This document shows, in pieces, positions 36,041 through 36,552 of a DNA stretch of 64,000 bases. This DNA is from Candidatus Levybacteria bacterium RIFCSPHIGHO2_02_FULL_40_18. Lineage in GTDB: Bacteria > Patescibacteriota > Microgenomatia > Levybacterales > GWA1-39-11. Position 1 is the first letter of the stretch, and each line of letters starts with the position of its first letter. Where the stretch lies: NCBI GenBank assembly GCA_001782235.1, contig MFOC01000007.1, forward strand, positions 86,799 to 150,798. The letters are read 5' to 3'. The notes beneath the pieces are model-generated. The model did no database searches, was not told the DNA's origin, and worked only from the letters and a program-made list of their open reading frames with translations. The position numbers and the translations under genes were made by a program.

Positions 36041-36103
36041 AGAAAATAGAAAATAGTTATTAGAAAATAGACAATGGTTCGGAAATTAGAAAATAGAAAT
36101 TGG
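36041..36103. repeat. Purine-rich arm flanking the four-helix-bundle gene
   Basis: AGAAAATAGAAAATAGTTATTAGAAAATAGACAATGGTTCGGAAATTAGAAAATAGAAATTGG; complementary in composition and words to 36490-36552. Confidence 0.7.
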
Positions 36104-36505
36104 TTAACGATCATGGTAATTCTTCCAAGATTTCTTAAGATTCGTTAGTTGCTTACAGGAGATTATATATAAATTTATGACTTCGTTGCAAAGTTTAGGA
36201 TCGACGTATTTACTATAAACATCTATGCATACTGATAAATGATTTATCATTTCGTAACATTCACCTATCGTATCATCTATATATTTACTCCATGCTTTTT
36301 TCTGATATCTTTTGGCAAACCCCTCAGCAAGTATGGCTGGTCCTGCTTTGCAACTACGTCTCATTTGATCAACAAGATCAAACTTCTCTTCCTTCGGTAG
36401 ATTAGTAATTATTTCCTTCAATACTGTGACCATTGCCTTATATAAATTTTGGTACACCTCAAGATCTTGAAAAGTTCTGATTGGCTTTTTCTTTCTATTT
36501 TCCAT
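36104..36505 (-). CDS. Four-helix-bundle protein (23S rRNA intervening-sequence protein family)
   Basis: ..IRTFQDLEVYQNLYKAMVTVLKEIITNLPKEEKFDLVDQMRRSCKAGPAILAEGFAKRYQKKAWSKYIDDTIGECYEM.. fits the family pattern; start moved to ATG 36505 because upstream codons are repeat words. Confidence 0.75.
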   Translation of the reverse strand: MENRKKKPIRTFQDLEVYQNLYKAMVTVLKEIITNLPKEEKFDLVDQMRRSCKAGPAILAEGFAKRYQKKAWSKYIDDTIGECYEMINHLSVCIDVYSKYVDPKLCNEVINLYIISCKQLTNLKKSWKNYHDR

Positions 36506-36552
36506 TTTCAAATATCTATTACCATTTTCCACTTTCCTACAACCATTTACAA
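36490..36552. repeat. Pyrimidine-rich arm flanking the four-helix-bundle gene
   Basis: CTTTCTATTTTCCATTTTCAAATATCTATTACCATTTTCCACTTTCCTACAACCATTTAC. Confidence 0.7.

Follow-up and report, generated by a model that had tools for sequence, protein, structure and literature searches.

Why does a gene of the 23S rRNA intervening sequence (IVS) protein family lie between two protein-coding genes, enclosed by inverted arrays of seven-nucleotide words? The question is raised by a 64,000-nt stretch of contig MFOC01000007.1 (positions 86,799 to 150,798; hereafter the window) of Candidatus Levybacteria bacterium RIFCSPHIGHO2_02_FULL_40_18, a member of the Candidate Phyla Radiation (CPR)/Patescibacteria from the Rifle aquifer. 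In its type IV secretion system (T4SS)-like locus, a small four-helix bundle (4HB) open reading frame (ORF) and two flanking arms form what we call the cassette. An earlier note on this DNA had read the cassette as part of an insertable, IVS-like family that extends beyond rRNA. Our analysis supports this reading, and on balance we consider it probable that the cassette belongs to a widespread type of stem-bracketed 4HB element with IVS-like architecture and the RNA mechanism proposed below.

IVSs of 23S rRNA have been known since about 1990, and where they come from, how they spread and what their conserved ORF does are long-standing questions; ORF-containing 23S rRNA IVSs are reportedly the subject of work by Ralph and McClelland in 1993. 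Heptamer repeats, i.e., the short tandemly repeated repetitive (STRR) sequences of cyanobacteria and the GGGAATC repeats of Xanthomonas, have been unexplained for about as long, and "four helix bundle protein" is among the commonest uninformative annotations in bacteria.

A four-helix bundle gene between inverted heptamer arms

The 4HB ORF (36104-36505, minus strand) encodes 133 aa from its ATG; an alternative GTG start at 36532 would give 142 aa. In the sense of the ORF, the 5' arm (36491-36558, minus strand), recognized by an inverted-repeat finder, its period of 7 and the minimum free energy (MFE) fold, consists of purine-rich heptamers (GGAAAGT GGAAAAT GGTAATA ...). The 3' arm (36041-36103, minus strand) consists of pyrimidine-rich heptamers and spans the interval between the 4HB stop codon and the ATG of a downstream regulator. 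Read on the plus strand, 36041-36103 is thus the purine-word arm and 36491-36558 the pyrimidine-word arm. The repeat finder returns the arms as inverted repeats of 28-37 nt that are 73-75% complementary, with cores of 89-93%, and Tandem Repeats Finder assigns period 7 to both (36492-36537 in the 5' arm) and a 21-nt super-period to 36040-36079. That two matching inverted arms flank the ORF, as the earlier note had it, holds true, but the pyrimidine-word arm also overlaps the first codons of the ORF: ATG GAA AAT AGA AAG is itself arm sequence.

In the MFE fold of the cassette RNA (36030-36575, minus strand) the arms pair around the ORF (-124.8 kcal/mol, z = -3.7), and the stem contains both the 4HB AUG and the AUG of the downstream gene. 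Terminal complementary sequences hence form a stem that encloses the element, as they do in IVSs. The arms are built of tandem degenerate 7-nt units in a convergent inverted pair, a frequent arrangement of STRR and GGGAATC repeats that is also found in the long hairpins described below. One of the words, GAAAATAG, occurs 29 times in the window, mostly in intergenic spacers, against 5.7 expected occurrences, and none of 100 shuffles reaches 29. The architecture is that of a PF05635 ORF between two 50-70-nt inverted arms of degenerate 7-nt words, as in ORF-carrying 23S IVSs.

The assignment of the ORF to the 23S-IVS-protein family, and of its fold to the family of Avd, the accessory protein of diversity-generating retroelements (DGRs), had been proposed from the sequence, and both are borne out. 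The protein scores 56.8 bits against PF05635 (curated cut-off 33.8) and 48.5 bits against TIGR02436 (curated cut-off 24). An AlphaFold (AF2) model computed with 20 homologues as input has four long helices (pLDDT 90), and its monomer is an up-down four-helix bundle as in XCC0516 (2GSC) and BT_0352 (2RLD), which are also the first two Foldseek matches in the PDB (target-normalized TM 0.89 and 0.84), followed by DGR Avd (8UBE_D, TM 0.74). The family motif GxxRxxxSxxxNxxE (Lin, 2006, given in PMC3936711) does not occur in this form. In a manual register against canonical members such as QMRRAAISIPSNIAEG in locus L008 (loci from other genomes are given by number), the window subfamily reads QMRR(S/A)CKAGPA(I/L)(L/I)AEG, with R and E retained, S replaced by A and N by I or L. 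The loss of S and N marks the window 4HB as a divergent subfamily, which fits its modest profile score.

The 4HB gene is under strong purifying selection, with a dN/dS of about 0.05 (0.04-0.07 against close relatives; dS is 0.6 even for the pair with 94% identity), and therefore encodes a functional protein. Judging from the fold and the kinship to Avd, binding of structured nucleic acid would be its most likely activity. Membership in a defense system was considered and dismissed, since PADLOC returned matches at noise level only. An assembly artifact is ruled out by the identical protein and locus in independent JGI, NCBI (GCA_001782715.1), Logan and ENA assemblies.

Arms at other four-helix bundle genes

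If the arms belong to the element, they should recur where the 4HB gene recurs. A homologue search with the 4HB protein yielded 548 proteins, most of them at 65-75% identity, and a scan of species-representative genomes yielded 45 loci, which span many CPR phyla as well as Margulisiibacteriota, Saganbacteria, Omnitrophota, TA06, Tritonobacter, Edwardsbacteria and Bacteroidota. Almost all of these loci have a 5' arm and a 3' arm of reverse-complementary heptamer words. The words themselves differ: most CPR loci use AGAAAATAG / GGAAATTGG, Margulisiibacteriota and Saganbacteria GTTGTGGGTTATGAG, Omnitrophota GGTAGTGGGTAGTGAG, Tritonobacter GGAAAACGGAAAACTG and several other loci CGAAATTCG, and single loci use GGAAGTTCGGAAGTATGG (L028) or GTTGTCTGGTTGCCTAG (L037). 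Other PF05635 subfamilies in these loci have yet other words, namely TAGCGTC/GACGCTA in L008 and the pyrimidine-first TTCTAAT/ATTAGAA in L060, L044 and L055.

Inverted-flank scores separate 47 4HB genes (median 22) from 537 other ORFs (median 10; Mann-Whitney p = 2e-14), and scores of at least 20 are reached by 66% of the former and 3% of the latter. The earlier note had named 4HB genes without arms, or an ORF outside the family, as what would speak against its reading; the two distributions, together with the profile matches above, point the other way. The mean arm duplex energy is -44.7 kcal/mol compared to -29.8 kcal/mol for shuffled arms, with z > 3 in 29 of 43 elements. Moreover, a 5' arm matches the 3' arm of its own element better than foreign 3' arms (22.3 vs. 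15.5, permutation p < 1e-4). Shuffles, control ORFs and arm cross-pairing together rule out chance or low complexity as the source of the arms.

The distance from the 4HB stop codon to the next start codon clusters at 61-66 nt, which equals the arm length, and neighboring genes are mostly co-directional (31/40 upstream, 29/37 downstream). Next to a 4HB gene, no rRNA was found in about 50 distinct loci of the window subfamily; a single rRNA motif lies about 8 kb away. In several loci a complete hairpin of two arms and a loop directly follows the 4HB stop codon (L074 1273-1400, L075 406-500, L032 10410-10530, L047 950-1120, L029 1160-1290). Alternative structures could form there, as the distal pyrimidine arm has two potential partners, the purine arm close by and the one that precedes the ORF.

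The bridge to 23S rRNA

In a sample of cultured organisms, canonical 4HB genes are found on plasmids and chromids, and most show arms. In Picosynechococcus PCC 7003 the gene lies between cas10/cmr2 and cmr3 with arms GAGGAGATAAG / CTTATCTCC, in Anabaena sp. 90 between cas6 and cas4 with arms AGGTGAC / GTCACCT, and in Nostoc C052 the arms are (GGGAACA)n / (TGTTCCC)n. Inverted heptamer arms also accompany the 4HB genes of Geminocystis, Leptolyngbya, Stanieria and Riemerella. On pPg_01 of Pseudanabaena galeata (L080, 490-1070) a 4HB gene between cas6 and cas4 has (AAAAGCT)x14 upstream and (AAAAGCC)x10 downstream. Among the GGGAATC heptamer repeats of Xanthomonas is one that extends over the start codon of XCC0516, whose crystallized protein is the best structural match of the window protein (supplementary table in Rehm et al., 2015, PMC4692102). 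X. campestris has 186 GGGAATC repeats, 70 of them in inverted pairs, and the 4HB family is not mentioned in that study (PMC4692102).

The rRNA side of the comparison is provided by Azospirillum lipoferum 4B. A 4HB ORF without an annotated CDS lies inside its 23S rRNA gene (Rfam, L086 4184-7382, 2693 bits) at the helix-45 position and hence belongs to a classical IVS. Its arms have period 7 (GAGGACG x3.9 and GTCTTCT x4.1 in Tandem Repeats Finder) and an inverted-repeat score of 27 vs. 9.2 +/- 1.8 in shuffles. The helix-45 IVS thus has the same kind of heptamer arms as the mRNA-leader cassette of the window, in agreement with the idea of an IVS-like element that is not confined to rRNA. One and the same module, a 4HB ORF with matched inverted heptamer arrays, recurs across many phyla in intercistronic gaps and mRNA leaders as well as in rRNA, and ORF-less hairpins accompany it.

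The insertion site and its occupancy in relatives

The cassette lies in a transcribed gap between a promoter-like box and the ATG of the host regulator. The regulator (34724-36040, minus strand) has 438 aa with an ATPase-like N-terminus and a C-terminal winged helix of OmpR/PhoB type (Trans_reg_C, 80.5 bits). The box, CTTGATATT ... TAACAG (36564-36593, minus strand), is located just upstream of the 5' arm and is called promoter-like on account of its conservation in alignments. In relatives without a cassette, the same box is found 16-40 nt upstream of the regulator ATG, so that the cassette occupies the regulator 5' leader. Scans for consensus promoters and terminators around the cassette gave nothing above chance, and no terminator-like T-tracts occur in the scanned region 35950-36700.

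A metagenome scan with the regulator protein retrieved 6 loci, enough to show cassette-less sites and too few for a gain/loss phylogeny. The cassette is present at the same site in L073, L007, L009 and L018, whose 4HB proteins are 94, 86, 72, and 72% identical to that of the window and whose regulators are 61, 79, 48, and 47% identical, respectively. L062 and L063 have neither cassette nor arms, although their regulators (70-71% identical) are closer to that of the window than the regulators of the carriers L073, L009, and L018. L065 differs in having a 4HB gene on the downstream side of the regulator. This distribution requires that the cassette was gained or lost at least twice, as expected of an insertable element. 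Furthermore, L073 is a mosaic in which the upstream flank, the 5' arm and the 4HB gene are near-identical to the window whereas the 3' arm and the regulator are divergent, placing a breakpoint within the 3' arm. The length of this arm varies among the loci (66, 57, 24 nt).

Empty hairpins

Seven ORF-less hairpin spacers occur elsewhere in the window, six with the words of the cassette and one with other words; none has an assigned strand. Two of the long same-word hairpins lie next to pilin genes. One (34570-34723) fills the gap from the regulator stop codon to the ATG of the gene of a 465-aa pilin-like protein (pilin-465), the other (33035-33171) the gap from the pilin-465 stop codon to the ATG of a 111-aa pilin; the latter is 82% identical to the cassette arms and the former is its 88%-identical inverted copy. 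The others are found between two minus-strand genes (10008-10140), about 10 nt upstream of the ATG of a 537-aa gene in TrbL position (41345-41480), and in the leader of nrdR, where palindromes resembling NrdR boxes precede the hairpin and the ATG follows it (42560-42706). The sixth, short one (25815-25880), which was aligned with the other spacers, occupies the gap between the minus-strand gene 25881-26954 and the next gene. The hairpin of the second word class, TCAAAAG / CTTTTGA (25050-25170), fills the whole intercistronic gap between two minus-strand T4SS-like genes with arrays of TCAAAAG x7 and TTTTGAA x5.6.

The five long same-word spacers fold into long imperfect hairpins on either strand (z -3.2 to -7), have period 7 in Tandem Repeats Finder and are 76-88% identical to each other. 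After deletion of the ORF, the cassette arms align with them end-to-end at 75-83% identity, and it is this alignment that makes the description of the spacers as empty versions of the same stem correct. The other-word hairpin reaches 64-75% with the same-word spacers, which is the low-complexity baseline. Empty hairpins built of local words are also found in other genomes, for example in L037 at 10858 and L047 at 1034.

Comparison with the close relative L007 shows the empty hairpins as discrete indels of about 135-150 nt. The junctions regulator TAG-[148 nt]-ATG pilin-465 and pilin-465 TAA-[about 135 nt]-ATG pilin-111 of the window correspond to a plain 54-nt spacer and to TAAattATG, respectively, in L007. 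These indels and the variable occupancy of the cassette site both agree with the proposed insertability. The nrdR leader has a hairpin at the same position in the window and in L007 (215-310), with words AGAAATT and CAAAGTT, respectively; here the position is conserved and the word sequence is replaced.

The pilin-465 gene (33172-34569, minus strand) is bracketed by the two inverted copies at 33035-33171 and 34570-34723, the 88% identity of which includes the loop. Among 584 ORFs tested, its flank-vs-flank score of 76 ranks first. With repeats of about 140 nt in inverted orientation on its two sides, this 1.4-kb surface-protein gene could be a substrate for inversion or recombination. Further word classes in CPR loci are TACAAAT, CAAAGTT, TCAGCGT, and TTCTAAT (L037 2242, L051 3570, L007 266, L017 8666, L041 9482). 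A single (CTAGTGA)x4.7 array with no obvious inverted partner lies at 17513-17545 in the divergent spacer between 15099-17492 (minus strand) and 17554-18966 (plus strand).

A proposed mechanism and its alternatives

How might such an element be tolerated and maintained? The cassette would lack a promoter of its own and would be co-transcribed within the host transcript. Its arms would pair into a long imperfect duplex, loop out the ORF and bring the flanking host RNA together, such that the upstream stop codon or promoter would adjoin the downstream start codon. Because the duplex would join the host flanks, insertions would be tolerated in leaders and intercistronic gaps, as they are in rRNA helices. 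As with rRNA IVSs, the duplex would probably be a substrate of RNase III, whose cleavage would release the 4HB mRNA and give the downstream gene a new 5' end. Slippage and template switching within the quasi-palindrome may cause the arms to grow, shrink and homogenize, and loss of the loop would leave an empty hairpin.

Several observations weigh against this interpretation. RNase III processing is argued solely by analogy. Stem stability does not distinguish the two strands (sense -44.7 vs. antisense -42.0 kcal/mol, p = 0.16), and the sense strand has no excess of wobble-type mismatches (93 vs. 89). The lack of a wobble bias fits a DNA-level palindrome or neutral copying rather than selection on one transcript, and neither the energy nor the mismatch test supports sense-strand RNA selection or an RNA-only model. 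Neither a target-site duplication nor an insertion enzyme was identified, and the stable synteny of the cassette in several relatives implies that any mobility is slow. The co-directionality of the neighboring genes, about 77%, is near the general background for bacterial gene neighbors. Moreover, clear arms are absent in L035, L055 (two genes), and L057, both copies of Nostoc 7120 have a 3' arm only and adjoin transposase genes, and the 4HB genes of Pseudanabaena (L080) and Gemmatirosa (L072) have direct instead of inverted heptamer arrays. The latter two are exceptions to the stem geometry that still keep the association with heptamer arrays.

The strand symmetry of the stems and the missing G.U bias are what would be expected of a DNA-level palindromic mobile element, similar to a miniature inverted-repeat transposable element (MITE) or a hairpin of repetitive extragenic palindromes (REPIN). 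DNA hairpins or cruciforms would then be moved by a transposase or a replication-associated process encoded elsewhere, and the 4HB gene would be a passenger or accessory in their loops. The dispersal of hairpin copies of 78-88% identity in either orientation, their appearance as discrete indels relative to L007, and the complete hairpins right 3' of the 4HB stop codon in several loci, which resemble nested or adjacent insertions, agree with this, and a gene within inverted copies along with many ORF-less doublets recalls REPINs and their REP-associated tyrosine transposases (RAYTs). Yet the Pfam domain lists of the loci contain no transposase, RAYT or TnpA-like genes near the cassettes, and target-site duplications were not seen. 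At the nrdR leader the arm sequence turns over fully between genomes while the position is kept, unlike the outcome of fixed-sequence copy-and-paste. In addition, all copies lie in transcribed gaps and abut a start codon, and the rRNA-borne member has a known RNA-level biology. We regard a DNA-level mobile element as unlikely.

Alternatively, the words might be protein-binding arrays, in which a pentameric 4HB protein or the winged-helix regulator binds DNA or RNA, the arms serve as operator or autoregulatory site and the stem is secondary. The 7-nt period with super-periods of 14 and 21 nt (about two DNA turns) would suit such an array, as would the overlap of an arm with the 4HB start codon both here and in XCC0516, the high conservation of the 4HB protein, the presence of its relative Avd in the solved DGR reverse transcriptase (RT)-RNA ribonucleoprotein (PDB 8UBE), and also the direct arrays of Pseudanabaena and Gemmatirosa. 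Within one subfamily of 55-75% identity, though, the words are wholly different (GAAAATAG, GTTGTGGG, GGTAGTG, CGAAATTCG), which makes sequence-specific recognition unlikely; a binding array would not need a matched inverted order of arms, nor would it account for empty hairpins in gaps unrelated to the regulator. It thus appears improbable. The hairpins could also be ordinary host structures, i.e., terminators, attenuators or mRNA-stabilizing stem-loops, with an ordinary small 4HB gene between two of them. They do fill intercistronic gaps of an operon-like locus, the position of the nrdR-leader hairpin is conserved between genomes and the 4HB gene is syntenic in several relatives. Against this stand the absence of T-tracts of terminator type in the scanned region, the lack of hairpins at the same junctions in relatives, and the geometry of the cassette, which has two half-hairpins, one arm per side, that pair with each other and not two full hairpins. 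Furthermore, the statistical association with 4HB genes holds across phyla and contexts, including 23S rRNA. Of the explanations discussed here, we give this one very little credence.

We therefore retain the stem-bracketed 4HB element with IVS-like architecture as the favored explanation. A bolder extension would unite 23S IVSs, STRR-type and GGGAATC repeats, 4HB genes of cas operons and the word spacers of CPR genomes as a single, hitherto unrecognized class of self-tolerated insertion element: one ancient, phylum-spanning element of 4HB proteins and inverted heptamer arrays, whose protein would act in trans as a nucleic-acid-binding partner, similar to Avd, to create, maintain or spread the hairpins. 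This extension is speculative and we hold it to be doubtful.

Comparison with known systems

ORF-containing 23S IVSs, such as those of Leptospira and the helix-45 IVS of Coxiella burnetii with S23p (Warrier et al., 2016, PMC4990558), resemble the cassette in that a PF05635 ORF occupies the loop of a stem of terminal inverted repeats. Both are embedded in transcribed sequence whose flanks the stem can bring together, and the sporadic distribution of both suggests horizontal spread. In Coxiella and Leptospira, RNase III is known to excise ORF-bearing IVSs (PMC4990558). Unlike these IVSs, the cassette resides in an mRNA leader between protein-coding genes and not in rRNA helix 9, 25 or 45, and it is accompanied by many ORF-less hairpins. 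Its arms measure about 65 nt at about 75% complementarity, compared to the 28-bp stem of the Coxiella IVS. In Coxiella the ORF reportedly decays and is not translated (PMC4990558), in contrast to the window ORF with its dN/dS of about 0.05.

With the cyanobacterial STRR, the Xanthomonas GGGAATC and the Nostoc GGGGA(C/T)T repeats (PMC4692102) the arms share degenerate intergenic tandem 7-mers, often in convergent inverted stem-loop pairs, a strand-biased G content and positions that are conserved between related genomes. Rehm et al. (2015, PMC4692102) interpreted such heptamers as G-quadruplex-forming simple repeats and made no connection to 4HB genes or IVSs. In contrast to the GGGAATC type, the window words are A-rich (GAAAATAG) and a G-quadruplex is impossible.

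The likeness to Avd and bAvd of DGRs comprises the four-helix bundle fold family, a small basic protein and weak matches to phrog_3206 and NF033474. Identity with DGR Avd was rejected, as NF033474 scores 19.7 bits against a cut-off of 80 and an RT domain is absent within 10 kb on either side. A pair of template and variable repeats (TR/VR) was likewise not found within 10 kb of the 4HB gene; unlike in a DGR, its flanks are inverted heptamer arrays.

Like REP/REPIN-RAYT systems and MITEs, the locus combines a gene between inverted short structured repeats with dispersed ORF-less intergenic hairpins in both orientations. The empty hairpins are dispersed indel copies, and neither target-site duplications nor a cognate transposase are recognizable. 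Unlike these systems, the encoded protein is a 133-aa helical bundle without nuclease or transposase features, and the repeats are degenerate heptamer arrays, not a fixed palindrome, with words that turn over between genomes.

Other features of the window

The earlier note had also proposed that a fragment of the 4HB-suffix domain survives right after rpoD. The 76-aa ORF at 2713-2943 (plus strand), which overlaps the rpoD stop codon (ATGA), does resemble this domain in its C-terminal part (TIGR04258, 4helix_suffix; 38.6 bits and E 7e-10, just below the 40-bit cut-off), and one of its homologues is named "four helix bundle suffix protein" by one source. It is not a remnant, however. All 18 homologues, found in other Patescibacteria at 69-85% identity, are short (49-126 aa), which identifies it as a small ORF that is conserved on its own and not in decay. 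A CCCTC/GAGGG inverted repeat (2712-2732 / 2769-2795) encodes its first codons.

Divergent from the cassette lies a gene of about 1000 aa (36628-39702, plus strand), and a gene of the same size occupies the same position in L007 (2829-5861, minus strand). The two have no detectable homology (BLASTP E 0.85), the L009 and L018 counterparts match at about 25% over the C-terminus only, and no Pfam domain was found in the window gene. It was dropped as a synteny anchor since homology is undetectable even in the closest relative, and this large protein of the T4SS-like locus may be hypervariable or have been replaced repeatedly. In the L009-L014 lineage (5864-7456), the regulator and pilin genes are separated by inserted AbiEii/DUF6922 and PIN/PrlF toxin-antitoxin pairs. 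The T4SS-like locus seems to accumulate accessory insertions.

Neither rRNA nor, by a motif search of the window, rnc was found in the stretch. An AdoCbl-II riboswitch (45704-45777, plus strand; 39.8 bits, cut-off 36.5) lies between a ribonucleotide reductase gene (43169-45673) and a Cob_adeno_trans gene (45857-46408). The tRNA-Ile gene at 54198-54269 (minus strand) has the anticodon TAT (UAU); UAU tRNA-Ile is uncommon in bacteria, where AUA is mostly read by a lysidine-modified CAU tRNA. The tmRNA gene (48499-48854, minus strand, 130 bits), tRNA-Asn (6388-6460) and tRNA-Ser (57300-57385) are ordinary.

Implications

Genes annotated as 23S_rRNA_IVP between cas6 and cas4 and between cmr2 and cmr3 have been read as possibly CRISPR-related in function (Zhang, Doak and Ye, 2014, PMC3936711). 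Anabaena 90, Pseudanabaena and Picosynechococcus show these arrangements in our analysis as well, and the heptamer arms suggest that these cas-locus 4HB genes may be inserted cassettes of the kind found in the window. In the literature searched, which covered subscription journals incompletely, we found no paper that connects 4HB or IVS proteins with heptamer arrays or inverted repeats.

The cassette thus calls for caution toward function assignments by guilt-by-association for 4HB genes embedded in operons. It also brings IVSs, heptamer repeats and 4HB genes, three separate puzzles, into one testable hypothesis, for which Xanthomonas XCC0516, Anabaena, Nostoc, and Picosynechococcus would be tractable systems.

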